Shown one piece after another: positions 7,761 through 58,923 of a stretch of DNA of 64,000 nt. Made by a program: the position numbers and the translations under genes. The stretch comes from Candidatus Omnitrophota bacterium. GTDB lineage: Bacteria > Omnitrophota > Gorgyraeia > Gygaellales > Profunditerraquicolaceae. The stretch spans positions 1,048,359-1,112,358 of the forward strand of contig CAWDSS010000010.1 of the NCBI GenBank assembly GCA_963805065.1. Direction: 5' to 3'. The first letter of the stretch is position 1; each line of letters begins with the position of its first letter. The notes beneath the pieces were generated by a model, which saw only the letters and a list, made by a program, of their open reading frames with translations, made no database searches and had not been told where the DNA came from.

Positions 7761-8772
7761 TAAGAGGATATTGATTTTTAACGTTAACTGGGTAGGAGAT
7801 GTGTTGTTTTCTACGGCAGCCATAAGAAATATCCGGCGAAATTTTCCGGATAGTTTTATCGCCTGCATAATACCCAGCCGGTGTTACCAGGTTTTAAAAG
7901 GTAACCCCTATTTAGATGAAATTATTATCTTTGACGAGCATGACCGGCATAAAGGCATTTTATCCAAGTTGAATTTTATAAAAACTTTGAAAGGAAAAGA
8001 GTTTGATACCGTATTTTTGCTGCACCGTTCATTTAGCCGCGCGCTTATCTGCAGGCTTGCAGACATACCCCACAGGATTGGTTTCTATACAAGGAAACGC
8101 GCGTTTCTTTTGACCAAAGCCATAATACCCCCTAAGAAGGATTCACTGCACCGCATAGACCATTATCTTTACTTAATCGAAAAAGCAGGGCTAAAATTAG
8201 AAGACAGATACCTGGATTTTTTTGTCAGCGATGAAGATAAAAAATCTGTGGAAGATTTCTTAAGCAGGAATTCCATTTACCCTAAGGATTTCCTGGCAGT
8301 GATAAATCCGGGAGGCAACTGGTTTGCTAAGCGCTGGCCGAAGGAGCATTGGGCGCAATTGGCAGATAAATTAGTCAAAGAGTTTAAAGCGAAGGTGGTA
8401 ATTACGGGAGGCAATTCCGACGTAGTCCTGGCAAAAGAATTACAGCATTTAATGGAAGAAGATTCCGTCGTTGCATGTGGAGCGTTAAGCCTAAAGCAGG
8501 CGGCAGCATTGTTTAAGCGCGCAGATTTGTTTATATCGGCAGATACCGGGCCTTTACATATCGCAAATGCTTGCGGAGCAAAAAAGATTGTGGCGATCTT
8601 TGGCCCGACGTCACCGGAAATAACCGGGCCATACCCCTTAAAGAATGTGATACTTTTGCGTAAAGACAGCGGATGTAAGATTCCCTGTTATGAAGCAAAA
8701 TGTAAAGATAGCCGTTGCATGAAGGCAATTTTGCCGGGTGAAATTATAAAGGCACTGAAAGATGCAGGTTAA
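7750..8772 (+). CDS. GT9 family ADP-heptose:LPS heptosyltransferase-like
   Basis: ILIFNVNWVGDVLFSTAAIRNIRRNFP, PGGNWFAKRWP and SADTGPLHIANA motifs. Confidence 0.8.
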   Translation: MNNNKRILIFNVNWVGDVLFSTAAIRNIRRNFPDSFIACIIPSRCYQVLKGNPYLDEIIIFDEHDRHKGILSKLNFIKTLKGKEFDTVFLLHRSFSRALICRLADIPHRIGFYTRKRAFLLTKAIIPPKKDSLHRIDHYLYLIEKAGLKLEDRYLDFFVSDEDKKSVEDFLSRNSIYPKDFLAVINPGGNWFAKRWPKEHWAQLADKLVKEFKAKVVITGGNSDVVLAKELQHLMEEDSVVACGALSLKQAAALFKRADLFISADTGPLHIANACGAKKIVAIFGPTSPEITGPYPLKNVILLRKDSGCKIPCYEAKCKDSRCMKAILPGEIIKALKDAG

Positions 8773-10780
8773 AAAAATACTTTTTATAACCTTAAGCAAT
8801 ATCGGAGATGCAATTCTTACGCTGCCGGTTTTGGATTATTTAAAGAAAAGCTTTGCCGGCTCCCAGATTACCGTGATGACGGGACTGCGTGCGAAGGAAA
8901 TTTTTGAAAATGATCCTCTCGTAAAAAATTTGCTTGTTTACGATAAACATGCGAGGCTCCGTGAAAAAATCAAATTATTCCGGCAATTAAAACAAAAGAA
9001 TTTTGATTTAATTGTAGATTTACGTAATAGCTTTTTGGGAAGATTGCTTAGTTTTGGGCGCAGGGGAGTTCTTAGGAGCGCTTCTTTAGTAAAATCCAGG
9101 CATATGAAGGATATACATATGTCTAAAGTCGCCACAAAAATACCTCATCTAGCCGGTAACTCTTTACATGTTACGCCCCAGGATGAAGATTATGTCACCC
9201 GTCTCCTTGAGGAAAACAATATTTCCCAGAAAGATAATTTCGCGGTTATTTCTCCGGGTGCCAGGAGCAATATAAAGAGATGGCCTGCGGAAAAATTTAT
9301 GGAATTAATTTACGGTATTACTCAAACATTTAAATTAAAGGTAGTCTTGGTGGGAGATAAGGATGATGTGCCAATTACCGGCTATATTACAGAGCGCTCT
9401 AAATATGCTGTTACGGATTTAGCAGGAAAGACCAGCATCCTTCAGTTGGCTGCTTTGTTAAAAAGGGCAAAGGCCTTAATTTGTAATGACAGCGCTAGTA
9501 TGCATTTAGCCAGTTACCTTAATATACCAGTGGTGGCATTATTCGGGCCTACAGATGAAACAAAATACGGGCCGTGGTCCAAAACTTCAGTAACCGTAAA
9601 AAAAGAAATCTCCTGCAGGCCTTGCAAAAAAGCGCAGTGTAAATTCAATACCTTAGAATGCATGCATTTGATAAAAGTCGAAGACGTAATGAGGGCTCTA
9701 AATAATGTTTTAGCCCAGAATCCAGAACCCAGAGCCCGGAACCTGGAGAATTTTAAGCGTATACTTATCGCCCGCACAGATAGAATCGGCGATGTCCTTT
9801 TGTCAACGCCCGTAATTAAAGCCCTAAGGGAAAATTACCCCAATGCATATATTGCCATGATGGTTAGCCCCTATGCAAAGGATATAGTAGAAGCTAATCC
9901 CTACCTTGACCAGGTTATAATTTATGACAAGGATACTAAACACAAGAGTTGGGCTAGGTCAATAAAGTTTTCTCAGAGGCTCAAAAATAAAAGGTTTGAA
10001 TTGGCTATTATCCTGCATCCTACAAACCGCGTGCACCTGATAACATTTCTTGCAGGCATACGCAGGAGAATAGGCTTTGACAGGAAACTGGGGATTTTGC
10101 TGACCGACAGGATTAAGCATACCAAGCAGATGGGGCTTAAACATGAATTAGAGTATACCCTGGATTTAATCAGGCATTTAGGTATAGAGCCGGAAAATAA
10201 AAATCTGTTTATACCCATAAGGCAAGAATCAGAAGATTGGGTAGATGAATTATTTAAACAGGAGAGGATTAAAAAAGAGGATTTGTTATTGGCGATTAAC
10301 CCTGGAGCAAGCTGTCCCTCAAAAATCTGGCCCAATGAAAGGTTCGCCGAGGTTGCCGACAGGCTAATTGAAAAGTACGGGTTTAAGGTTTTGGTTGTGT
10401 CCGGGCCAAAAGACACTAGCTTAGCAGCAAGCCTGATTAAACATATGCGCCATAGCGCCCTGGATTTATCCGGCAAAACTTCATTAAGCCAGTTGGCAAG
10501 CTTGTTAAAAAGAAGCAATTTGTTTATATCCAATGATTCGGGTCCCGTGCACATTGCAACTGCCGTGGGAGTGCCGGTAATCGCAATATTCGGCAGGAAT
10601 CAGACGGGTTTAAGCCCTCGTCGTTGGGGGCCGGTTGGCAGAAAAGACAAAATCCTTCATAAACAGGTAGGTTGTATTAACTGCCTGGCGCACAACTGTA
10701 AAAATGGGTTTGCCTGCCTTAAGGCAATAACCGTGGAGGATGTTTACGAAGCAGCTGACCAGATAATGCAGTGTGCTTAA
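8762..10780 (+). CDS. Tandem GT9-GT9 fusion (two heptosyltransferase-like domains in one ORF)
   Basis: Two full GT9 units. Unit 1: ILFITLSNIGDAILTLPVL ... CNDSASMHLASY. Unit 2: ILIARTDRIGDVLLSTPVI ... SNDSGPVHIATA. Confidence 0.75.
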   Translation: MQVKKILFITLSNIGDAILTLPVLDYLKKSFAGSQITVMTGLRAKEIFENDPLVKNLLVYDKHARLREKIKLFRQLKQKNFDLIVDLRNSFLGRLLSFGRRGVLRSASLVKSRHMKDIHMSKVATKIPHLAGNSLHVTPQDEDYVTRLLEENNISQKDNFAVISPGARSNIKRWPAEKFMELIYGITQTFKLKVVLVGDKDDVPITGYITERSKYAVTDLAGKTSILQLAALLKRAKALICNDSASMHLASYLNIPVVALFGPTDETKYGPWSKTSVTVKKEISCRPCKKAQCKFNTLECMHLIKVEDVMRALNNVLAQNPEPRARNLENFKRILIARTDRIGDVLLSTPVIKALRENYPNAYIAMMVSPYAKDIVEANPYLDQVIIYDKDTKHKSWARSIKFSQRLKNKRFELAIILHPTNRVHLITFLAGIRRRIGFDRKLGILLTDRIKHTKQMGLKHELEYTLDLIRHLGIEPENKNLFIPIRQESEDWVDELFKQERIKKEDLLLAINPGASCPSKIWPNERFAEVADRLIEKYGFKVLVVSGPKDTSLAASLIKHMRHSALDLSGKTSLSQLASLLKRSNLFISNDSGPVHIATAVGVPVIAIFGRNQTGLSPRRWGPVGRKDKILHKQVGCINCLAHNCKNGFACLKAITVEDVYEAADQIMQCA

Positions 10781-20009: not shown

Positions 20010-21146
20010 ATGCGTAAAATTTATTTACTTACACCAGGGCCAACACCATTACCACCCAAGGTTTCTGAAGCGATGGCGAGGCCCATTATCCATCATAGGA
20101 CGCCACAGTTTCAGGCAATATTAAAAGAAGCTACAGAAGGGCTTAAGTATGTTTTTCAGACTAAAAACGATTGTTTTATACTTGCTTCTTCAGGTACAGG
20201 TGCAATGGAAGCAGCAGTAATAAATTTACTTTCTCCCGGTGATACAGCCTTAACTGTCCAAGGCGGAAAATTTGGAGAAAGGTGGACTGAAATTTGTAAG
20301 GCCTACAACATAAATACTGAAATTATAGATGTGGAGTGGGGAAAAGCAGTAGACCCATCAGAAATTCAAAAAAGATTAAAAACTAATCCTAAAATAAAAG
20401 CGGTATTCGTTACCTTGTGTGAAACTTCTACGGGCGTGGTTAATGATATTCAGGCCATAGGAAAAGTTATAAAGGATACGCCTGCGGTTTTGGTAGTAGA
20501 TGCCATAAGTGGATTAGGGGCAATTGACCTAAAAACAGATGACTGGTCTTGTGATGTTGTGGTTTCCGGATCGCAAAAAGGCCTGATGCTTCCTCCGGGA
20601 TTAGGTTTTATTTCAGTAAGCCCGAAGGCAATGAAGTTAGTCGAAGCTTCAAAATCCCCCGGCTATTATTTCGATTTAAAGAAGGCCAAGAAAGCCATTG
20701 ATAAAACCGATACGCCATTTACCCCGGCTATCACTTTGATTGTTGCGCTTTGTGAAGCGATAAATTTGATTAAAGAAGATGGATTAGAGAGCGTATTCTT
20801 GCGCCATGCGAAAATGGCTGACGCGACCAGACAAGCTATGAAGGCATTGGGTTTGGAATTATTCGCGCCCAGCGCTTCATCGGATGTGGTTACTGCTGTC
20901 AAACTGCCGCAAGGCCTGGACGGAGAAAAGCTGGTTAAGACCATGCGAGATACCTATAATATTACAATAGCCGGAGGCCAGGATGAATTAAAGGGCAAGG
21001 TGTTTCGAATCGCTCATATGGGCTATATCGAAGAATTTGATATTATAGTTGGTATATCCTGCCTGGAAAAAGTTCTGGCTCAAATGGGGTACAAATTTAC
21101 TTTAGGGGCCGGCATTAAAGCCGCCGAAGAAATATTCTTGAAATAA
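20010..21146 (+). CDS. Class V aminotransferase (serine-pyruvate / phosphoserine aminotransferase-like)
   Basis: LLTPGPTPLPPKV N-terminus and SGSQKGLMLPPGLG (PLP lysine). Start moved to ATG 20010 after GGAGG. Adjacent to serA. Confidence 0.8.
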   Translation: MRKIYLLTPGPTPLPPKVSEAMARPIIHHRTPQFQAILKEATEGLKYVFQTKNDCFILASSGTGAMEAAVINLLSPGDTALTVQGGKFGERWTEICKAYNINTEIIDVEWGKAVDPSEIQKRLKTNPKIKAVFVTLCETSTGVVNDIQAIGKVIKDTPAVLVVDAISGLGAIDLKTDDWSCDVVVSGSQKGLMLPPGLGFISVSPKAMKLVEASKSPGYYFDLKKAKKAIDKTDTPFTPAITLIVALCEAINLIKEDGLESVFLRHAKMADATRQAMKALGLELFAPSASSDVVTAVKLPQGLDGEKLVKTMRDTYNITIAGGQDELKGKVFRIAHMGYIEEFDIIVGISCLEKVLAQMGYKFTLGAGIKAAEEIFLK

Positions 21147-21157
21147 GCGAGGGAGAA

Positions 21158-22744
21158 ATGATTAAAATTTTAGTCAGTGATCAACTATCGGAAGAAGGGC
21201 TAAAGATATTGAAGGAAGTAAAAGAGTTTCAGGTGGACGTTTTGACGGAATTGAAACCCGAGGCATTAAAAGAAATAATTAAAGATTATGATGCGCTTCT
21301 TGTAAGGAGCGCCACCAAAGTAACCAAAGACATAATCAACGCCGCAGATAAATTAAAGGTCATTGGCCGCGCAGGCGTAGGTCTGGATAATGTTGACTTG
21401 GAGGCAGCTACGCAAAAAGGCATTATTGTAATGAATACTCCGGCGGGCAACACAATTTCTACCGCAGAGCATACCTTTAGCATGATTTTAGCGCTTTCCA
21501 GAAACATTGCCCAGGCTAATGCTTCCACGAAAAAAGGAGAATGGAAACGCTCAAAATTCATGGGAGTGGAGCTGTTTGAGAAGACGCTGGGGATTGTCGG
21601 ATTCGGAAGAATCGGCTCGGAAGTGGCAAAGCGCGCTAATTCATTCGGTATGAAGGTATTGGCGTTTGACCCCTTTTTGTCTAAAAAAATTGCTGAAGGT
21701 ATTGGTGTGGAAGTGGTGGAATTAAAAGATTTGCTCCAGCGCTCAGACTATATAACCGTGCATACGCCTCTTACAGAAGAAACAAAACACATGATATCAA
21801 CGAAAGAATTCGTATTAATGAAAAAAGGCGCCAGGATTATTAACTGTGCAAGAGGCGGCATAGTTGACGAAGCAGCCTTGGTGGAAGCTATCAAAGAAGG
21901 CAAAGTCGCAGGCGCTGCAATTGATGTCTTTGAAAAGGAGCCGGTAGATCCAAACAGTGAATTATTGAAATTGGAGAATGTGGTTACTACTCCGCACTTA
22001 GGGGCATCGACCGAAGAAGCGCAGGTAAATGTTGCGATTGAAGTGGCAGAGATTACCCGCGATGCGCTTTTGGGTAAAGGCATACGCAATGCTGCAAATT
22101 ATCCCTGCATAGAAGCAGAGGCCTGTAAATTCCTAGATCCCTACATTAACTTGGCGCAAAATTTAGGCTCATTTTCCAGCCAGTTGGTAGAGGGTCGATT
22201 CCAGGAATTAAATATAAGTTATAGCGGAGATATCGTGAAATACGATTTAGGTCCGCTCACTATGTCATTGGTTAAGGGAGTGCTTTCACCAATCTTAAAA
22301 GAAACGGTGAATTTCGTTAATGCAATTTCTTTAGCCCGCGAAAGAGGCATAAAGATAAGCGAAGCAAAATCAACCAACGAAGAGGAATTCGTAAATCTTA
22401 TCCAATTACAAATAAAAACCGACCAGGAAACCAGGGTAATTTCAGGCACGCTTTCTTCCAACAAGCAGCCGCGTATAGTAAAAATAGACAATTATTATGT
22501 TGAGCTTTCTCCCGTAGGAGAAATGATTTTTATACAGAATTGGGATAAGCCGGGTATTATCGGTGCTTTGGGTACACTTTTAGGCAAGCACGATATCAAT
22601 ATTGCTGCTATGACCTTTGGCCGCGATAAGCCGGGCGGAAGGGCTATAAGCGTATTAAACGTGGATAGTGTTATTTCAGCGGATATTTTGGATAAAATAA
22701 GAAAAACAGAGAATGTATTAGGAGCTAAGGTGGTAAAACTATGA
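21158..22744 (+). CDS. serA: D-3-phosphoglycerate dehydrogenase (with C-terminal ACT domain)
   Basis: GIVGFGRIGSEVA NAD motif and the ARGGIVDE/TPHLGAST catalytic region. About 528 aa, long form. Confidence 0.9.
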   Translation: MIKILVSDQLSEEGLKILKEVKEFQVDVLTELKPEALKEIIKDYDALLVRSATKVTKDIINAADKLKVIGRAGVGLDNVDLEAATQKGIIVMNTPAGNTISTAEHTFSMILALSRNIAQANASTKKGEWKRSKFMGVELFEKTLGIVGFGRIGSEVAKRANSFGMKVLAFDPFLSKKIAEGIGVEVVELKDLLQRSDYITVHTPLTEETKHMISTKEFVLMKKGARIINCARGGIVDEAALVEAIKEGKVAGAAIDVFEKEPVDPNSELLKLENVVTTPHLGASTEEAQVNVAIEVAEITRDALLGKGIRNAANYPCIEAEACKFLDPYINLAQNLGSFSSQLVEGRFQELNISYSGDIVKYDLGPLTMSLVKGVLSPILKETVNFVNAISLARERGIKISEAKSTNEEEFVNLIQLQIKTDQETRVISGTLSSNKQPRIVKIDNYYVELSPVGEMIFIQNWDKPGIIGALGTLLGKHDINIAAMTFGRDKPGGRAISVLNVDSVISADILDKIRKTENVLGAKVVKL

Positions 22745-24510
22745 ATAGAAAAGTAAAAAGTAAAAAGCCAAAAGTAAAAAGTTTTGTTATTTTGATTTCA
22801 TTTGTCATTTGTACTTTGTGTTTTGTCATTGGCGTAGCAAATGCTAAGGAAATAGCAATCATCTACTCCGGACAGACCCACGCCATGATTTATCCCTGCA
22901 GTTGTCCTTTTGACCCCGAAGGCGGAGTTGCACGCAGGGCAACCGTGGTTAAACAGATACGAAAAGAATATCCCGATAACCTGCTTTTAGATTCCGGAGA
23001 TTTCTTTGCTGGAGGACTGATGGATGAATACACGCAAAATACCCAGCTTGACATCCAGCGTTCACTGGTAAATCTTAGGGCAATGGAGTTGATGAAATAT
23101 GACGCCGCAGCAATAGGTGACGACGAATTTAATTTCGGCAGCAAAATTTTGCGGGAGAATATTGCCAAGACGAAATTAACCTTTTTATCCTGCAATTTAA
23201 AATCCGACAAAGTATCTTCCTCTATGATTAAAGAAGTCTCTGGGGTAAAAATCGGCATTATCGCAGTAACTACGGTTTTGGCAAAACAAAAATCCGACGA
23301 CCTCGAATTTAATGATCCTAAAAGTGCAGTTTACACGGCAGTAGAAAATCTGCATAAGCAAAATGTAAATATTATTATAGTCTTAAGCCATTTGGCAGAA
23401 AACGAAAGCCTGAATTTGATTAATGATGTAGGGGGAATAGATATTTTAATCGAAGGCCATAGCGCGGCAAATAATAAGGAACCATCTACTAAGATAGGCA
23501 ATACCTTAGTGTTAAGGCCCTCTTGGGAGGGTAAGAGCCTGCAGGCCTTAATTCTTTCGGTTGAAGGCGATAAAATAAAGACATACAAACTTAGAGAGAG
23601 TAAATTATCGAATGCGGTTGCCGATGACCCGCAAATTATTTCTATATTACCCAAATGTTTTTCTGACAATAATTGTAAAAAAGAAGGGTTTGTGGGTTTA
23701 TGTAAAGACCCCGGAGATTTAAAATCCCGGTGTATTTTTAACAAAGCCAATCAGGTGAAGTTATTAATTGTTACGCCTAAAGATTGCCTTGTTTGCGAGA
23801 CAGCACCTATCTCGGATTTCTTAAAGAGGCAATTTCCCGGCTTAAGCATTTCTTACATGTATTATCCTGATAAACGCGTAAACTCACTTATAAAGGATTT
23901 TAACGTCACGGGACTACCGGCTTATTTTCTGGGAAAAGAAGTAGAAATGGAAGGAAATTTTAATGCCCTGAAAGGAAACTTAACGCTAAAAGGGCAATAT
24001 TATATGGTTGCGCCTTATTTTAGCGGGTTCTCTTATTTTTTAAACAGGCAGAAACAAAAAGGAAAATTGGACTTATTTTTAAGCTTGTTTGATAAAGCTA
24101 CGCCACAGCTTTTGACAGTTATAAAGGAATTCAATCCTCAAATACATTTTCTGGCAATTGAGGAATCAGGTAAGTTCGATGCAGCTTCGGGTAGAAGAGA
24201 AGTTGAGGAAGATATGCGTGCAGTATGTGTGCAACAATACTACCCAAAGCATTTCTGGGATTATATCAGCTGCAGGTCAAACAATATCGATAGTTCATGG
24301 TGGGAGGATTGCGCGCAAGGCATTGATTTAAGTAAAATTTTTACATGCGCCAGGGGAAACGAAGGATATTCTTTGTTGAAGGCAAATACCGCAATCACCA
24401 AAGAAGCCCACATCATGATGGGTCCGGCTTATTTACTGGATAACCTTGAAATATTCAGCTCTAGGGGTGCTCCTTCTAAGGATGAACTTAAGAAAATAAT
24501 AAAGAGGTAA
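22741..24510 (+). CDS. Exported 5'-nucleotidase/metallophosphoesterase-like protein with degenerate metal motifs; Cys-rich C-terminal half
   Basis: DSGDFFAG, IGDDEFNFG (in place of GNHEFD), VLSHLA and ILIEGHS align to calcineurin-like phosphoesterase motifs. The signal peptide is encoded by heptamer repeats. Confidence 0.45.
   Translation: MNRKVKSKKPKVKSFVILISFVICTLCFVIGVANAKEIAIIYSGQTHAMIYPCSCPFDPEGGVARRATVVKQIRKEYPDNLLLDSGDFFAGGLMDEYTQNTQLDIQRSLVNLRAMELMKYDAAAIGDDEFNFGSKILRENIAKTKLTFLSCNLKSDKVSSSMIKEVSGVKIGIIAVTTVLAKQKSDDLEFNDPKSAVYTAVENLHKQNVNIIIVLSHLAENESLNLINDVGGIDILIEGHSAANNKEPSTKIGNTLVLRPSWEGKSLQALILSVEGDKIKTYKLRESKLSNAVADDPQIISILPKCFSDNNCKKEGFVGLCKDPGDLKSRCIFNKANQVKLLIVTPKDCLVCETAPISDFLKRQFPGLSISYMYYPDKRVNSLIKDFNVTGLPAYFLGKEVEMEGNFNALKGNLTLKGQYYMVAPYFSGFSYFLNRQKQKGKLDLFLSLFDKATPQLLTVIKEFNPQIHFLAIEESGKFDAASGRREVEEDMRAVCVQQYYPKHFWDYISCRSNNIDSSWWEDCAQGIDLSKIFTCARGNEGYSLLKANTAITKEAHIMMGPAYLLDNLEIFSSRGAPSKDELKKIIKR
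22747..22830 (+). repeat. 12-heptamer block (5 A-rich xAAAAAG-type, then 7 T-rich TTTGNNN-type) encoding the signal peptide
   Basis: AGAAAAG TAAAAAG TAAAAAG CCAAAAG TAAAAAG | TTTTGTT ATTTTGA TTTCATT TGTCATT TGTACTT TGTGTTT TGTCATT. 84 nt = 28 codons (RKVKSKKPKVKSFVILISFVICTLCFVI). Confidence 0.85.
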
Positions 24511-24726
24511 GTGAGGACATAATTTATGGAGCGAACACCCGGCTTTATCGGAACAGCCGGTGTGCCGCTTGTGCGGCAAGCGAACATAAATTATTCGTCC
24601 GAACTTACCCAGCACTAATTTTGATAACAATAGACTAAAAGAAAATTAGTGCTGGGTTAAATTCGCACAATAACTTATGTCGGAGAATAGAAATTAATGC
24701 TCCATAAGTTATGTGCTCATTTAAGA
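24511..24726 (+). repeat. Modular nested-palindrome repeat, expanded copy (M1 with extra inner hairpins, M2, M3)
   Basis: GAGGACATAATTTATGG...ATAAATTATTCGTCC. M2 stem identical to copy A (24607-24622/24642-24657). M3 GCACAATAACTTATG...CATAAGTTATGTGC. Ends TTAAGA before the RBS and ATG 24736. Confidence 0.85.
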
Positions 24727-24735
24727 GGTGATTAT

Positions 24736-25974
24736 ATGGCTGACAAACCAAAGATTTATCTTATCGACGTAACTAACCGCGACGGAGTGCAGACTTCGCG
24801 CATATGCCTGTCTAAATTACAGAAGACCATGATTAATATTTACCTGAATGAAATGGGCGTATTTCAGTCGGAGTTTGGATTTCCCGTAACCCGCCACGAA
24901 ACAAATTACCTGAACGCAAACCTTGAATTAGTCAAAATGGGCGCACTTTCTCCCATCAGGTTAAGCGGCTGGATCAGGGCAACCAAGGAGGATGTATTAA
25001 CAGCATTCCATTTGGTTGCGCAAATCAAGCACCTAAACCTTTCCATTTCTACATCAGACCAGATGATTATGCATAAATTTAAGGGGAAGCTTGACCATGG
25101 GTCTGTAATACAGGAAATGACAGAAGCTGTTAAAGAGGCGCGTAAATTGAAAGCTGATTGCATTGGCGTAAACGCAGAAGATGCATCCCGCACCAGAATG
25201 GATTATTTAATTGAATTCGCCTTGGCAGCTAAAGAAGCGGGCGCCGACCGGATCCGTTATTGCGATACATTAGGATGCGATACGCCCTTTTCGATTTACG
25301 AAAGGATAAAACTTTTGGCGCAAGCCGTGAAAATGCCTATTGAAATTCATTGCCACAATGATTTGGGATTGGTAGTGGCTAATTCGATTGCCGGAGCAAA
25401 AGCAGCAATTGATGTCGGGTGCGATACCTATATAAATACCTGTGTAAACGGAATGGGTGAGCGCGCAGGAAACGCAGATTTAGTTTCAGTGATGCTGGCG
25501 CTAAAATACGGCAGCGGCATGCAGGATTATCGTTTAGATGAAAGGGTAAACTTCAAAATGGCCTGGAAGATATGTAAATATGCTTCTTATGCTTTCGGAG
25601 TGCCCATACCTATAAACCAGCCAGGCGTGGGGGCAAACGCATTTGCCCACGAATCGGGAATCCACGCAGACGGGGCATTAAAAGACAGGCGAAATTATGA
25701 GCTTTATGATTTTGAGGAACTGGGCAGGGGTGAGCCTGAAATAATTGAAACCGGCCGAAAGATCACCGCCGGAGAATACTCCGGAATAAAGGGTTTTCGA
25801 AATGTTTATGAAAAGCTGGAAGTGGTTTTTCGCGACGATGAAGAAGCCACAAAGGTGCTGGAATTAGTCAGGTATGCCAATGTCCATAATCAAAAGCCCC
25901 TGGTTGATGAGGAACTAAAGTTTATCGCTACGTATCCTGATATAGCGCGTAAAATATTCACCATGATACCGTAA
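24736..25974 (+). CDS. HMGL-like aldolase family enzyme (homocitrate / 2-isopropylmalate / citramalate synthase-like)
   Basis: IDVTNRDGVQT, HCHNDLGLVVANS and AHESGIH motifs. Start moved to ATG 24736 (AGAGG RBS). No LeuA dimerisation domain evident. Confidence 0.7.
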   Translation: MADKPKIYLIDVTNRDGVQTSRICLSKLQKTMINIYLNEMGVFQSEFGFPVTRHETNYLNANLELVKMGALSPIRLSGWIRATKEDVLTAFHLVAQIKHLNLSISTSDQMIMHKFKGKLDHGSVIQEMTEAVKEARKLKADCIGVNAEDASRTRMDYLIEFALAAKEAGADRIRYCDTLGCDTPFSIYERIKLLAQAVKMPIEIHCHNDLGLVVANSIAGAKAAIDVGCDTYINTCVNGMGERAGNADLVSVMLALKYGSGMQDYRLDERVNFKMAWKICKYASYAFGVPIPINQPGVGANAFAHESGIHADGALKDRRNYELYDFEELGRGEPEIIETGRKITAGEYSGIKGFRNVYEKLEVVFRDDEEATKVLELVRYANVHNQKPLVDEELKFIATYPDIARKIFTMIP

Positions 25975-25976
25975 TT

Positions 25977-27387
<1,411 letters not shown>

Positions 27388-34156: not shown

Positions 34157-35236
34157 ATGCTTACCTTTATTTTATTTTTATTTATTTTAAGCGTGCTTAT
34201 AATTGCGCATGAATTCGGGCATTTTATTGCCGCAAGGAAAGTAGGGGTAAAAGTAGAGAAATTCTCCCTGGGATTTGGCCCGGTGTTACTGAAGAAAAAA
34301 AAGAATGATACGGAATATACCCTAAGCGCTATTCCCTTAGGTGGATTCGTTAAGCTTGCCGGAGACGATTTGGAAGAATATAAGGGAGAAAAATTCGAGT
34401 ATTATTCCAAATCTATTTTTGACAGGTTTAAAATAGTGTTTTTCGGCCCGTTCTTGAATTATGTAATGGGAATTGTTTGTTTCTGGATTATACTGGTCAG
34501 CGGCTACCCTATGCTTACCACCAAAGTCGGCGGGCTGCTTGAGGGATTCGGTGCAAAAAAAGCCGGCTTAGAGGTAGGGGATAAAATCCTTGCTATCGAT
34601 GGTAAAAAAGTAGGGTATTGGGAAGACCTGCAAAAACTAATCCAAAGTAAAGCTACAGCCAGCCAGGTCAATGTCTTAGTATTGCGGGAAAATAAGGAAT
34701 TGGCCTTTACTGTTTCTATAAAAGAAAAACAGATGAACGACCAGCTTGGCCAGAAGCGCAATGTCGGATTGCTTGGTATTAGTCCCTTTGATGAAATCGT
34801 AAGCGTAAAATATGGGCCGCTGGAGTCATTGGGCCGTAGCTTTCAAAAGGCATGGGAATTGACGGCTATGACTTATACTGCGCTTTGGCGCATGATTACA
34901 GGTAAAATGTCCATCAGCGATTCGGTTGCCGGCCCCCTAGGGATTTTCTATATAACTTCCAAGGCAGCTAGCCTCGGAGTAACTGCGGTAATCCACTTAA
35001 TCGCGATATTAAGCATAAGCCTGGCTATCTTTAACCTCCTGCCTTTACCTGTGCTGGACGGCGGGCATATTTTATTTTTAATTATAGAAAAGGTACGCAA
35101 AAAATCCCTAAGTATAAAAACCGAACGCATCGTTACCCAAATCGGATTTAGTATAATTATAACCATGGCAATCTTTGTAACTTATAATGATATATTAAGG
35201 TTATTTGGAGATAAAATATCCAAGTTTTTGAAATGA
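34157..35236 (+). CDS. rseP: RIP site-2 metalloprotease (RseP family, one PDZ)
   Basis: HEFGH zinc motif, a PDZ-like GLEVGDKILAIDG and a C-terminal NLLPLPVLDGG. Confidence 0.85.
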   Translation: MLTFILFLFILSVLIIAHEFGHFIAARKVGVKVEKFSLGFGPVLLKKKKNDTEYTLSAIPLGGFVKLAGDDLEEYKGEKFEYYSKSIFDRFKIVFFGPFLNYVMGIVCFWIILVSGYPMLTTKVGGLLEGFGAKKAGLEVGDKILAIDGKKVGYWEDLQKLIQSKATASQVNVLVLRENKELAFTVSIKEKQMNDQLGQKRNVGLLGISPFDEIVSVKYGPLESLGRSFQKAWELTAMTYTALWRMITGKMSISDSVAGPLGIFYITSKAASLGVTAVIHLIAILSISLAIFNLLPLPVLDGGHILFLIIEKVRKKSLSIKTERIVTQIGFSIIITMAIFVTYNDILRLFGDKISKFLK

Positions 35237-36303
35237 AAATTATAAGGCGAAAAAGCTTGATAGTAAAGATAGGTGATGTCAAAATAGGAGGTTGTAATCC
35301 GGTTGCCATACAATCTATGGCTAAGCATAAGACCTCTGATATTGAAAAAACAGTTACACAGTTAAATTGCCTGAAAAAATTGGGCTGTGAGATTGCCAGG
35401 GTTGCTATAAAAGATACTAATGATGCCAGGGCGATAAAACAGATTAAAAATAAAGTAAAGCTTCCGATAGTTGCCGATATCCATTTTGACTGGCATCTTG
35501 CCATAGAAGCAATTGAAAGCGGGGTAGATAAAATCAGGCTAAACCCTGGGAATATCTACAAGAAAGAAGAACTAAAGCAAATAGTCAGTGCTTTAAAATC
35601 GGCTAAAATACCATTAAGAGTAGGTTTAAATTCCGGATCGCTAAAATGCGTAAACTCTAAACATTTAAGTGTACCGGATAAACTTGTGGCATCTGCTTTA
35701 AATTATATAAGGATAATTGAAAAAATGAAATACCACGATATAGTGGTTTCACTTAAAGCTTCTAGTGTGCTGGATACCGTAGAGGCATATCGAAAAATGT
35801 CTAAGCTATGCGAGTTTCCCCTGCATTTGGGAGTAACGGCTACAGGTGCGCCGAATCAGGGAACAATAAAATCCAGCATTGCCATAGGCGCTTTATTAAT
35901 GGAAGGAATCGGGGACACGATAAGAATATCGCTTACAGAAGAACCCGGGCAGGAAGTTGCTGCAGCCAAGGCCATTTTAGAATCTTTGAATTTAAGGCAT
36001 TTCGGGCCTGAAATCATCAGTTGCCCGACGTGCGGAAGATGCGAAGTGGATTTAGTTAAGATAGTCAAAGATTTGGATAAGAAGCTATCAGTCGTCAGTC
36101 GTCAGTCGTCAGTCAAACCCTTAAAAGTTGCTGTTATGGGTTGTGTTGTGAACGGGCCCGGTGAAGCACGAGAGGCAGATGTAGGTGTTGCCTTTGGGAA
36201 ATCCGAAGGATTATTATTCAGGAAGGGAAGAGCAATAAAAAAAATAGCTTACCATGATATAACAAATTCCTTATTGAAGGAAATGGAGCAATTGAATGCT
36301 TAA
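35233..36303 (+). CDS. ispG: 4-hydroxy-3-methylbut-2-en-1-yl diphosphate synthase
   Basis: VQSM, ADIHFD, RINPGN, CPTCGR and GCVVNGPGEA motifs. Contains a TCAGTCG heptamer array. Confidence 0.95.
   Translation: MKIIRRKSLIVKIGDVKIGGCNPVAIQSMAKHKTSDIEKTVTQLNCLKKLGCEIARVAIKDTNDARAIKQIKNKVKLPIVADIHFDWHLAIEAIESGVDKIRLNPGNIYKKEELKQIVSALKSAKIPLRVGLNSGSLKCVNSKHLSVPDKLVASALNYIRIIEKMKYHDIVVSLKASSVLDTVEAYRKMSKLCEFPLHLGVTATGAPNQGTIKSSIAIGALLMEGIGDTIRISLTEEPGQEVAAAKAILESLNLRHFGPEIISCPTCGRCEVDLVKIVKDLDKKLSVVSRQSSVKPLKVAVMGCVVNGPGEAREADVGVAFGKSEGLLFRKGRAIKKIAYHDITNSLLKEMEQLNA
36088..36115 (+). repeat. Heptamer array (TCAGTCG x3 plus TCAGTCA) inside ispG
   Basis: Read directly. Encodes SVVSRQSSV between the CPTCGR motif and GCVVNGPGEA, where this protein is about 7 residues longer than E. 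coli IspG as I recall it. Confidence 0.85.
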
Positions 36304-47311: not shown

Positions 47312-48445
47312 ATGAAAATAAAACAAATTATAGGGATGATTGTGTTGGTTCTGGGTTCTGGGTTCTGGGTTCTGGGTTCTTTTGCCCTGCAGCAAAGCAC
47401 AGTAAGGGTACTTATTATAGATAAAACGCGATCTCTAAGCCTTAAACTCTTAGGGGATTATGAGATAATCAATTTAAAAGACAGCCAGATTTTATCCAGC
47501 GGCAGGGACCTTAAAACAACAGTAATGGGTTATTATAAAGGTATATTACTTGCCGGAAATAATTTCTCTGCGCAAAAACTTTTGCTTAAAGTGCAAAGCC
47601 AGGACGCAGTCATTATTAACGGCCGCTCATTCAGAGGAGATATCCAGGTGTCTCGAGACGGAGAACTCCTTTCAGTTATAAATTGTATCGATTTAGAAGA
47701 TTATATCAAGGGGATACTTTACCACGAAGCTTCGCATTATTGGCCGATGGAGGCTTTAAAGGCGCAGGCAATAGTTTGTCGTACCTACGCTATTTACGAG
47801 ATGCAGGAGAATAGAGATAAGGATTTTGATGTAACCAGCGATATATATTCCCAAGTTTACGGAGGAAAGACCTCCGAGCGTTTTCGCACCAATGAAGCAG
47901 TTGATGCTACTAGGGATGAGGTTTTAACTTATCAGGGAAAAGTTTTTCCCGCATATTTTCATGCTACTTGTGCAGGTCACACAGAAGATGCATCTCGTCT
48001 TTGGAACATTAATATAGCGCCGCTTAAAGGAGTACTGTGTGACTATTGCAAAGACTCTCCCCATTTTAACTGGCATTTGGTTTTAGACCGGGGGGAGTTG
48101 AGGCAAAGGCTGGTTAATTCAGGTTACTCGATGGGCATGATAAAAAATATCGAGATTTTAGGAAAGGATAATTCTGGAAGGATTACAGATCTAAAAATAT
48201 CCACCATAACCAAGGAAGTAAAAATATCTGCAAAGGATTTTCGTAACATCATCGGGCCCAATGAAATCAAAAGCACAAATTTTGTAGTTAGTTTCGCCGG
48301 TGAAGACTTTGTATTTGAAGGTTTTGGCTGGGGACATGGCGTAGGCTTATGCCAGTGGGGAGCTTATTTTATGGCTACGCAAGGTAAAACCGCAGAACAA
48401 ATCCTAAAGTATTATTATCCTCAAAGCAATGTTAAAACTTTCTGA
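47312..48445 (+). CDS. SpoIID/LytB-domain protein (peptidoglycan remodelling)
   Basis: DYIKGILYHEASHYWPMEALKAQAIVCRTYA, HATCAGHTE and GHGVGLCQWGA motifs. The signal peptide contains a GGTTCTG array. Confidence 0.8.
   Translation: MKIKQIIGMIVLVLGSGFWVLGSFALQQSTVRVLIIDKTRSLSLKLLGDYEIINLKDSQILSSGRDLKTTVMGYYKGILLAGNNFSAQKLLLKVQSQDAVIINGRSFRGDIQVSRDGELLSVINCIDLEDYIKGILYHEASHYWPMEALKAQAIVCRTYAIYEMQENRDKDFDVTSDIYSQVYGGKTSERFRTNEAVDATRDEVLTYQGKVFPAYFHATCAGHTEDASRLWNINIAPLKGVLCDYCKDSPHFNWHLVLDRGELRQRLVNSGYSMGMIKNIEILGKDNSGRITDLKISTITKEVKISAKDFRNIIGPNEIKSTNFVVSFAGEDFVFEGFGWGHGVGLCQWGAYFMATQGKTAEQILKYYYPQSNVKTF
47347..47381 (+). repeat. Heptamer array (GGTTCTG x4 plus GGTTCTT) in the SpoIID-like signal peptide
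   Basis: Read directly. Encodes [11 protein letters not shown] within the N-terminal hydrophobic segment. Confidence 0.9.
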
Positions 48446-49422: not shown

Positions 49423-50667
<1,245 letters not shown>

Positions 50668-50673
50668 AATTTT

Positions 50674-50736
50674 GCTTTCAGTCATCAGTCGTCAGCTTAC
50701 AGCTGATAGCTGATAGCTGAAAGCTGAAAGCTGAAC
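50674..50736 (+). repeat. Nine-heptamer palindromic element filling the tgt-trmD gap up to the ATG
   Basis: GCTTTCA GTCATCA GTCGTCA GCTTACA GCTGATA GCTGATA GCTGAAA GCTGAAA GCTGAAC, then ATG. 50674-50697 pairs imperfectly (about 19 of 24) with 50701-50724. Confidence 0.9.
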
Positions 50737-51423
50737 ATGCGCATTGATATTATCACTATTTTCCCCAAGATGTTTGAGCCTGTATTAAATGAATCTATAA
50801 TCAAGCGGGCACAGCACAAAGGAAAGGTAAAGATTTGTCTGCACGACTTAAGAGATTTTAGCGCTGATAAGCATAGAAAAGTGGATGACCGGCCATTCGG
50901 CGGAGGTTCAGGGATGGTAATGAAGCCGGAGCCGATATTCAAGGCAGTAGAGTATATAAAAGTTAAAAGTCAAAAGCCAAAAGTCAAAACTAAGGTTGTT
51001 CTGTTATGTCCCCAAGGTAAAAAATTAACTCAAAAAACTTGTAAGAAATTAGCAAAATACAAACATTTGATTTTAATTTGCGGCCATTACGAAGGAGTTG
51101 ATGAGAGAGTAAGGCACTATTTAGCAGATGAAGAAATTTCTATCGGCGATTATGTTTTGACTGGCGGAGAACTGCCGGCCATGGTCTTGGTAGATGCTAT
51201 TGTCAGGCTTATCCCGGGAGTTTTAGGCGATAAAAATTCCTTGAATTTTGAGTCATTTGAGAGTAATCTATTAGAATATCCGCACTATACAAGACCCGCG
51301 AAATTCAGGGACATGTCAGTGCCTCGGGAACTCCTTTCCGGAGACCATAAGCAAATTGAAAATTGGAGAAAACAACAAGCCATAAACAGGACCAAACTTA
51401 GAAGACCTGATCTTCTAAAATGA
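50737..51423 (+). CDS. trmD: tRNA (guanine37-N1)-methyltransferase
   Basis: [36 protein letters not shown] and [12 protein letters not shown] motifs. Confidence 0.95.
50958..50992 (+). repeat. Heptamer array AAAAGTT-AAAAGTC-AAAAGCC-AAAAGTC-AAAACTA inside trmD
   Basis: Read directly. Encodes [11 protein letters not shown] in a variable loop. Near-identical to 58885-58923 and to the A-arm at 22747-22781. Confidence 0.85.
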
Positions 51424-54464: not shown

Positions 54465-54467
54465 GAG

Positions 54468-54567
54468 CTTAAAACGCAAATCGCAAAAGGCAAAACTGGA
54501 ACCCAAAACTAAAAACGTTTTAAGTTTTACGTTGCAGTTTTGAGTTTTGACTTTTTCGTTTTGAGTC
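54468..54567 (+). repeat. AAAANNN heptamer hairpin element centred on AAAACGTTTT
   Basis: The arms meet at the palindrome 54512-54521. The right arm 54516-54558 is the reverse complement (42 of 43) of 56870-56912. Confidence 0.85.
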
Positions 54568-54580
54568 AGGAGTATAAGGA

Positions 54581-56859: not shown

Positions 56860-56863
56860 GAGC

Positions 56864-56964
56864 GCAAAACGTAAAAGTCAAAACTCAAAACTGCAACGTA
56901 AAACTTAAAACGTTTTGAATTTTGCGTTTAAGTTTTGCGTTTTGAGATTTGCCTTTTGAGTTTG
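56864..56964 (+). repeat. AAAANNN heptamer hairpin element centred on AAAACGTTTT
   Basis: Centre at 56907-56916. The left arm 56870-56912 matches the reverse complement of 54516-54558. Confidence 0.85.
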
Positions 56965-56979
56965 TTCAGAGGAGGTTAT

Positions 56980-58884: not shown

Positions 58885-58923
58885 GAAAAGTTAAAAGTAA
58901 AAAGCCAAAAGGAAAAACTAAAT
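58885..58923 (+). repeat. Single-arm AAAANNN heptamer array
   Basis: GAAAAGT TAAAAGT AAAAAGC CAAAAGG AAAAACT AAA directly after the cooS stop. Closely matches 22747-22781 and 50958-50992. Confidence 0.8.

Follow-up and report, generated by a model that had tools for sequence, protein, structure and literature searches.

CTCTT coding repeats reportedly occupy the leader-peptide region of the Neisseria opa genes (work of 1986 and 1989), and short repeats related to them are found among the signal-sequence codons of further Neisseria surface proteins. Rickettsia palindromic elements (RPEs) are said, on work of 2000, to lie in frame in protein-coding genes, and the cyanobacterial short tandemly repeated repetitive (STRR) sequences are an over-represented heptanucleotide repeat of bacteria. 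Heptamer repeats as a group are called over-represented in bacteria and still unexplained in the passage of PMC4692102 that cites a 2007 survey. Described families include the GGGAATC repeats of Xanthomonas (PMC4692102) and the TAACTGA repeats of Beggiatoaceae, which adjoin start codons and rarely overlap the ends of open reading frames (ORFs; PMC4679880). Here we describe heptamer arrays within the N-terminal codons of ORF 22741–24510 (+ strand, 589 amino acids), which directly follows serA (21158–22744) in a 64,000-nt stretch of a Candidatus Omnitrophota genome (assembly GCA_963805065.1, contig CAWDSS010000010.1, positions 1,048,359–1,112,358), below called the window.

From its sequence features, segment 22741–22845 is probably a functional Sec-type signal peptide, cleaved by signal peptidase I (SPase I), whose n-region and most of whose h-region come from the genome's own heptamer arrays. 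All coordinates are those of the 64-kb window, shown as WIN in alignments; P and L numbers denote orthologous proteins and loci or contigs, respectively.

Heptamer arrays in codons 3–30

Arrays were called with Tandem Repeats Finder (TRF). Periodicity was scored as lag-7 matches and compared with codon shuffles and with recodings of the same peptide at the window's codon usage, the segment being split for these tests at the codon boundary between n- and h-region. TRF reports two period-7 arrays, at 22749–22782 (AAAAGTA, 4.9 copies, 85% matches) and 22798–22830 (TCATTTG, 4.7 copies, 76% matches), both of which fall in codons 3–30 of the ORF, whose N-terminus reads MNRKVKSKKPKVKSFVILISFVICTLCFVIGVANA|KE.

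The A-rich part (A-arm; 22747–22781, + strand) comprises five heptamers (AGAAAAG, TAAAAAG, TAAAAAG, CCAAAAG, and TAAAAAG) and encodes RKVKSKKPKVK(S) in codons 3–14. It has 23 of 29 possible lag-7 matches, compared with ∼12–14 in shuffled or recoded versions (p = 5e-5), and its single CC unit occupies the exact spot where a TA unit would give an in-frame TAA. The T-rich part (T-arm; 22798–22830, + strand), made of 4.7 heptamers (TCATTTG, TCATTTG, TACTTTG, TGTTTTG, and TCATT), encodes SFVICTLCFVI in codons ∼20–30 and scores 26 of 41 (p = 0.0009–0.002). Because shuffling and recoding give far fewer lag-7 matches, the period of seven is not explained by Lys and Phe/Ile/Val codon usage.

An earlier note on this DNA, made from the letters alone, had read codons 3–30 as exactly 12 heptamers, with A-rich units encoding the Lys-rich n-region and T-rich units the h-region. 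The assignment of the two arms to the two regions is borne out for the n-region and most of the h-region, and the five A-rich units are as described, but the T-rich stretch TTTTGTTATTTTGAT (22782–22797, + strand), which encodes FVILI at the start of the h-region, is out of heptamer register and belongs to neither TRF array. Successive TTTG motifs are spaced by 8, 10, and then 7, 7, and 7 nt, and ∼9.6 units are truly periodic. In both DNA and local alignment, 22782–22797 lies opposite the h-region start of the closest orthologue, L019. The note had also taken the two arms for a repeat hairpin. They are not complementary, and the minimum free energy of the segment (−11.1 kcal/mol) is less favorable than the shuffle mean (−14.8 kcal/mol; z = +1.34), with 187 of 200 shuffles folding at least as well. 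No copy of the T-arm unit beyond chance expectation was found elsewhere in the window.

Start codon, signal-peptide features, and mature protein

The start codon at 22741 is real: the (A/G)TGA overlap with the serA stop codon recurs at 14 of 17 orthologous loci, array-bearing and array-free alike. In the window, the ATG (22741–22743, + strand) overlaps the serA stop TGA (22742–22744) as ATGA, and 7 nt before this ATG the 3′ end of serA contains an AAGGTGG motif resembling a Shine–Dalgarno (SD) sequence (22727–22733, + strand). The starts in L019, L020, L003, and L011 are likewise preceded by AAGGTGA or AAGGTGG. A start downstream of 22830, which would have undone the earlier note's proposal, is not indicated: there is no in-frame start codon between 22830 and the conserved mature block, and the next in-frame ATG falls within the invariant THAM(I/L)YPC motif of that block.

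The 35 codons at 22741–22845 (+ strand) can be divided into an n-region MNRKVKSKKPKVKS, an h-region FVILISFVICTLCFVIGV, and a c-region ending in ANA. The first 14 positions hold seven Lys or Arg and no Asp or Glu, and the h-region has 18 uncharged residues with a mean Kyte–Doolittle hydropathy of 2.99. The c-region GVANA is not repeat-encoded and contains, together with the following codon (22831–22848, + strand), a predicted SPase I site at A35|K36, where ANA|KE has Ala at both −3 and −1. This motif is conserved across 115 orthologues: position −1 is Ala in 110, position −3 is A, C, S, V, I, L, G, or T in all, +1 is Lys or Gln, and +2 is Glu or Asp. Within the signal segment there is no twin-arginine motif (no RR) and no lipobox of the form [LVI][ASTVI][GAS]C, the Cys residues being preceded by Ile and Leu (FVIC, TLC) and not by Gly, Ala, or Ser. 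These features point to a Sec-type signal peptide, with export and cleavage suggested by composition and the conserved motif.

The predicted mature protein (22846–24510, + strand) has a UshA-like/5′-nucleotidase/SoxB-like metallophosphatase fold and a Cys-rich C-terminal half. Its NCBIfam matches (UshA_like_PCGU, 2.9e-38; SoxB, 2.4e-26) both fall below the curated cut-offs, and the Pfam Metallophos match is weak. Enzymes of the UshA, 5′-nucleotidase, and SoxB kinds are normally periplasmic. The search for homologues of the ORF returned 506 proteins, and those with a source name are from Omnitrophota.

Plain, probably ancestral signals and array turnover in orthologues

A signal peptide is present in every one of the ∼117 orthologues, and its median length is 28 residues. 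In the window's clade (clades were taken from average-linkage clustering), four of six members (P0002, P0004, P0005, and P0028) have plain signals of 27–28 residues (MKNLKF...). Since every orthologue has a signal and those of the closest relatives are plain and 27–28 residues long, export seems to pre-date the arrays, which would have lengthened or overwritten an older signal and not created export. The two array-bearing genes compared, those of the window and of L020 with (AAAATTC)4.6, have signals of 35 and 32 residues, and DNA alignment places ∼18–24 extra nucleotides directly after their ATG; the window's h-region FVILISFV aligns with FWIVISIF of its closest relative. The suggestion that such repeats can be exapted as export signals thus needs dividing: heptamers do supply signal codons, also in other orthologues and genes, but they did not confer export de novo.

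Heptamer arrays recur at the same place in other orthologues, in units that differ from locus to locus. The N-terminal codons contain (AAAAGTC)4+ in L004, AAATTAC and CATTTGT arrays in L003, GTACAGR in L007, and (AAGTCAG)4 in L144. A perfect (ACTTTTT)6.7 encodes the entire h-region LFTFYFLLFTFYFLL of L143, (GTTTACA)4 lies with an inverted partner in the signal segment of L145, and a perfect (GGTTATT)4.9 lies in the h-region of L146. In L146 (2961–3020) the public gene call begins at an internal GTG, and the ORF read from the ATGA overlap with serA gives MMRYLRISVLLVIGYWLLVITPSLYA. At the protein level, an N-terminus with a period of seven residues occurs in 34 of 117 orthologues (∼29%), mostly those with long signals, compared with 2% of shuffles.

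Turnover is visible between close relatives. L019 (5001–5081) and L145 (557–660) share serA and mature-protein flanks that are 89–90% identical, and their signal segments are unrelated: that of L019 is plain (MKNLKFWIV...), and that of L145 is an array that folds as a hairpin. Signal segments are likewise unrelated in P0032 vs P0135 and in P0035 vs P0142, each pair within a cluster of ≥90% identity, and P0058 and P0122 (≥90% identical) differ by a two-residue indel within the array. Close pairs within such clusters thus show in-frame indels and whole-segment replacements, and no frameshifted allele was seen among them. As a side observation, the 90% cluster of P0058, a 599-residue bacterial protein, also lists a 57-residue protein of the fungus Cenococcum and one from Logan, which is probably a clustering artefact.

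A genome-wide period of seven

In this Omnitrophota lineage, period-7 arrays are found genome-wide. Tandem arrays in the window and in 17 orthologous loci have a period of 7 in 48 cases and of 14 in 16, compared with 7 for period 6 and 22 for period 8, and array-encoded signal peptides go with a high array density of the locus. Unit families are shared by 21.5% of pairs of sites within a locus vs 5.9% of pairs between loci (p = 2e-13, on pairs that are non-independent).

Nine of the 19 arrays in the window lie in non-coding DNA, which makes up 7.7% of its length (p = 4e-6), and the intergenic arrays typically start 2–7 nt past a stop codon. Several pair an A-rich array with a complementary T-rich array behind it and fold as long hairpins (54465–54570, z = −3.8; 56860–56966, z = −5.6). 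The hairpins fold better on the + strand for the window's intergenic arrays and on the − strand for L019 and L020. All three intergenic T-arms of the window use units that contain TGA (TTTTGAG, AGTTTTG, and GTTTTGA), and the coding T-arm unit TCATTTG is stop-free in every frame.

One spacer allows the same site to be followed across genomes. Between an HMGL-like gene and purA, inverted heptamer arrays are found in the window (25978–26108), L019 (8006–8058), L143 (10762–10853), and L144 (9447–9549), with different unit families in the four genomes, so that the site recurs and the sequence does not. The spacer has no array in L021 (20 nt) or L142 (2 nt).

The A-arm belongs to a family with further copies in the window, in agreement with the matches that the earlier note had listed. 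Its 19-mer AAAAGTAAAAAGCCAAAAG has an exact copy at 58893–58911 and a one-mismatch copy at 50965–50983, within trmD, and at up to three mismatches the window holds 7 matches vs 0.17 expected. The exact copy is part of an intergenic AAAAGNN-family array (58886–58922, + strand) that begins 2 nt past a stop codon; the trmD copy is part of an AAAAGTC-/AAAAGNN-family array (50958–50989, + strand) that is read in frame, encodes 11 residues of nearly the same peptide as the n-region studied here, and, compared with solved TrmD structures, adds five residues and replaces a loop. The A-arm 18-mer is also found in >120 metagenome contigs with GC contents of 0.26–0.69. Use of the 19-mer as proof of transposition is weakened by this recurrence in contigs of very different GC.

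A second family has coding copies in two genes. The GGTTCTG array that had been noticed in a SpoIID-like signal segment is a perfect (GGTTCTG)4.9 at 47347–47380 (+ strand), encoding 12 residues of the N-terminal hydrophobic segment of the SpoIID/LytB-like ORF 47312–48445. In the queuine tRNA-ribosyltransferase (TGT) gene, (GGTTCTG)4.4 is directly followed by (GAAAACC)3.4 (50028–50082); the two are in frame and encode 17 residues, which, compared with solved TGT structures, add 8+1 residues and replace a loop. In its hydrophobic half, the TGT array peptide is identical to that in the SpoIID-like signal segment.

Further coding arrays occur in other positions. A perfect (AGCTTTC)4.9 (2480–2513) lies in the last 35 codons of ORF 1550–2590, ∼30 nt upstream of the next ORF start, and an intergenic (AGCTGAA)5 (50701–50735) is its near reverse complement, placing one unit family on both strands. 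A perfect (TCAGTCG)3.9 (36088–36114) is in frame in ORF 35233–36303 and encodes SVVSRQSSV. Finally, (CCCAGAA)4.3 (9714–9743), the complement of the GGTTCTG family, is in frame in ORF 8762–10780 and encodes AQNPEPRARN; the peptide QNPEPR also occurs in the signal n-region of orthologue P0007.

The window has a GC content of ∼41% and every long ORF on the + strand; all 59 called genes of the 64 kb are on that strand, and GC skew is positive throughout. Rfam searches of the whole 64 kb gave no match at the gathering threshold, and scans of 21000–27000 for terminators and promoters gave no more sites than shuffles and none at arrays.

Array-encoded N-termini in other genes

Of the 45 signal- or anchor-like genes in array-rich loci, 9 have a strong period-7 tract within their first 150 nt, vs 1 of 115 others, that single case being a mis-set trmD start. 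Mid-gene control positions gave 1 of 160, and signal-like genes of array-poor loci 0 of 54. When the gene family under study is set aside, the contrast is 3 of 38 vs 1 (or 0) of 115 (Fisher p = 0.048, or 0.014), and the restriction of such arrays to signal-like N-termini is suggestive but thin.

Repeat-encoded signals are, in keeping with the earlier note, not confined to this gene and its orthologues. Besides the SpoIID-like gene, an LptC-like gene (L017 1056–1260) carries an insertion of ∼30 residues encoded by a hairpin array, (TCGTATC)/(GATACGA), between its start and its membrane anchor; its orthologues in L004, L005, and L008 lack the insertion. The arrays of the cytoplasmic proteins TrmD and TGT are confined to short insertions in loops. 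Scanning metagenomes with the A-arm motif further identified two unrelated contigs, L031 (GC 0.48) and L083 (GC 0.62), in which an AAAAGNN array with an inverted partner gives a long ORF an N-terminus that is first Lys-rich and then hydrophobic.

Proposed mechanism and alternatives

A simple property of the arrays could account for the predicted signal peptide. Each 7-nt unit shifts the frame by one, so that the unit would be read in all three frames every 21 nt. A stop-free A-rich unit would then give a basic peptide rich in Lys, Ser, Val, and Gln whatever the frame, and a T-rich unit, with T at codon position 2, would give Phe, Leu, Ile, Val, and Cys. An A-array followed by a T-array would thus read as n-region plus h-region in any frame, the sole requirements being that their combined length is a multiple of three and that no stop falls in frame, with the cleavage site contributed by the non-repeat c-region GVANA|KE.

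The placement of the arrays may follow from the gene layout. About half of the arrays lie between cistrons, often as an A-rich and then a complementary T-rich array. Because of the ATGA overlap there is no spacer between serA and the phosphoesterase gene, and arrays at this junction would sit inside the downstream gene, between the conserved start and the cleavage region. The signal peptide would be the one coding context able to absorb arrays that expand, are replaced, or decay wholesale, and arrays at a junction without a spacer would persist there on account of that tolerance. An ancestral signal of ∼27 residues may have been lengthened by ∼8–9 residues and homogenized by arrays that arose through slippage or copying, with expansion as the probable direction of change. 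Translation would act as a filter in which stop-free units survive in coding copies, consistent with the TGA-containing units of the intergenic T-arms, the stop-free coding T-arm, and the CC unit of the A-arm that averts TAA.

Several observations weigh against this account of tolerated, translated arrays. Export and cleavage are read from composition and the conserved motif. The enrichment outside the gene family under study comes from three genes (SpoIID-like, an exported protein in L006, and LptC-like in L017), and both the gene calls and the rule for signal-likeness were crude. Four array-bearing orthologue segments are hairpins (L003, z = −3.25; L004, −2.66; L143, −2.23; L145, −3.02), and a role at the RNA or DNA level may coexist with coding. 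The T-arm with its flanks (22790–22833) is 84–86% identical to L142 10023–10066 and L003 10011–10053, compared with 67–70% for the mature-protein DNA, which hints at nucleotide-level constraint or an ancient origin that a tolerated passenger would not predict. The likeness of the three T-arms may reflect descent under such constraint or convergence on one stop-free unit.

An alternative that we regard as unlikely is that the segment derives from a dispersed hairpin-forming element, similar to repetitive extragenic palindromic (REP) sequences, miniature inverted-repeat transposable elements, or RPEs, a copy of which was inserted or gene-converted into the signal codons and then co-opted. The exact 19-mer shared with 58893, odd GCC unit included, and its one-mismatch counterpart in trmD would fit such copying, as would the genome-specific unit families, the swapping of whole signal segments between genomes with ∼90% identical flanks, the in-frame hairpin arrays in TGT and TrmD, and the true hairpins among orthologue copies. 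Yet no conserved termini, target-site duplication, or associated transposase were seen, the arms in the window are non-complementary, and the extra DNA coincides with an A-rich seed (ATGAAAAAT...), which could have grown by local expansion. With the 18-mer in >120 unrelated contigs, copying finds little support in the identity of low-complexity arrays, and the within-locus statistic for unit families comes from non-independent pairs. Also doubtful, and somewhat more so, is a reading in which inverted heptamer arrays form an active and genome-specific system that inscribes itself at the boundaries of cistrons, or in the signal codons of the downstream gene where there is no spacer, and serves as both RNA/DNA hairpin and export signal. 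Under such a system, gain or loss of a single unit could also switch the exported protein off, and signal peptides would be a recurrent landing pad for rapid N-terminal innovation in Omnitrophota and, judging from L031 and L083, in other phyla.

Switching of this kind is also the core of a phase-variation model, in which the frameshift caused by one 7-nt unit gained or lost would switch the exported protein off or on, as in Neisseria opa. A non-triplet repeat within signal-peptide codons invites the comparison, and perfect arrays do occur in the SpoIID-like gene (47347–47380) and in orthologues L143, L144, and L146; the indel between P0058 and P0122 and the choice of a downstream GTG by the gene caller in L146 point the same way. 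The window's arrays, however, are imperfect (85% and 76%) with ∼5 units each, making them a poor slippage substrate, arrays of the same kind occur in housekeeping genes and between genes, and every orthologue examined is in frame (L146 included, when read from its ATGA start), with no frameshifted allele seen. Phase variation is possible in principle for the perfect arrays, but it is unsupported for the imperfect array of the window, and we judge it very improbable as an explanation here. Least credible of all is that the repeats are an untranslated leader upstream of a later start, or a chance period of seven arising from Lys and Phe/Ile/Val codons. Signal-peptide DNA is naturally A-rich and then T-rich, and in-frame TTG codons are present at positions 18 and 26; neither has an SD motif, though, and both lie inside the h-region, so that starting at either would leave the T-arm translated. 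The following ATG is already within the conserved THAM block, the ATGA start is kept at 14 of 17 loci, recodings of the same peptide rarely match the observed periodicity (p = 5e-5 and 0.002), and none of the 54 signal-like genes in array-poor loci shows it.

If the array-encoded signal peptide is read as proposed, the locus and its orthologues would be a natural, replicated demonstration that a signal peptide requires very little sequence information: non-triplet repeats may suffice when read in all three frames, as long as A-rich DNA comes before T-rich DNA and a cleavage site after both. In this poorly known phylum, the segment between start and cleavage site would be a hot spot where the gain, replacement, and loss of arrays greatly outpace the evolution of the mature protein. 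Software for gene calling and homology search can be expected to mis-set starts and mis-cluster such N-termini, as in the call of L146 from an internal GVG-type GTG and the grouping of a 57-residue fungal protein with P0058. Coding copies may also offer a handle on the unexplained excess of heptamers in bacteria, as they show which units survive the translation filter.

Comparison with known repeat systems

The arrays resemble the opa repeats in that a non-triplet short repeat in signal-peptide codons rotates through the frames and supplies the hydrophobic core. They differ in that the opa repeat is a pentamer in long, perfect, and demonstrably phase-variable tracts, whereas the window has a heptamer in a short, imperfect pair of A-array and T-array that is part of a genome-wide and mostly intergenic system.

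With the other bacterial heptamer repeats they share the period of seven, a mostly intergenic location near start or stop codons, occasional inverted pairs, variation in length and sequence at the same intergenic site between close relatives, and occasional overlap with the first or last bases of ORFs. Reports on STRR, TAACTGA, and GGGAATC repeats, however, describe no arrays that encode signal peptides; TAACTGA contains stops in all forward frames, and the genome studied here mixes many unit families. We found no literature linking Omnitrophota to heptamer repeats.

Like RPEs, the arrays are hairpin-capable repeat DNA translated in frame within conserved genes (here TGT, TrmD, and signal segments), but RPEs are elements of 100–150 bp with conserved sequence, are not tandem heptamers, and have no particular link to signal peptides. 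The window's intergenic arrays, which begin 2–7 nt past stop codons and fold as long hairpins, recall enterobacterial REP sequences and bacterial interspersed mosaic elements, although REPs have no 7-nt periodicity and no gene of the REP-associated tyrosine transposase (RAYT) type was seen in the window. Against this background, the array-encoded signal peptide is best filed as a real and recurrent variation on known phenomena and not as a new class of system.

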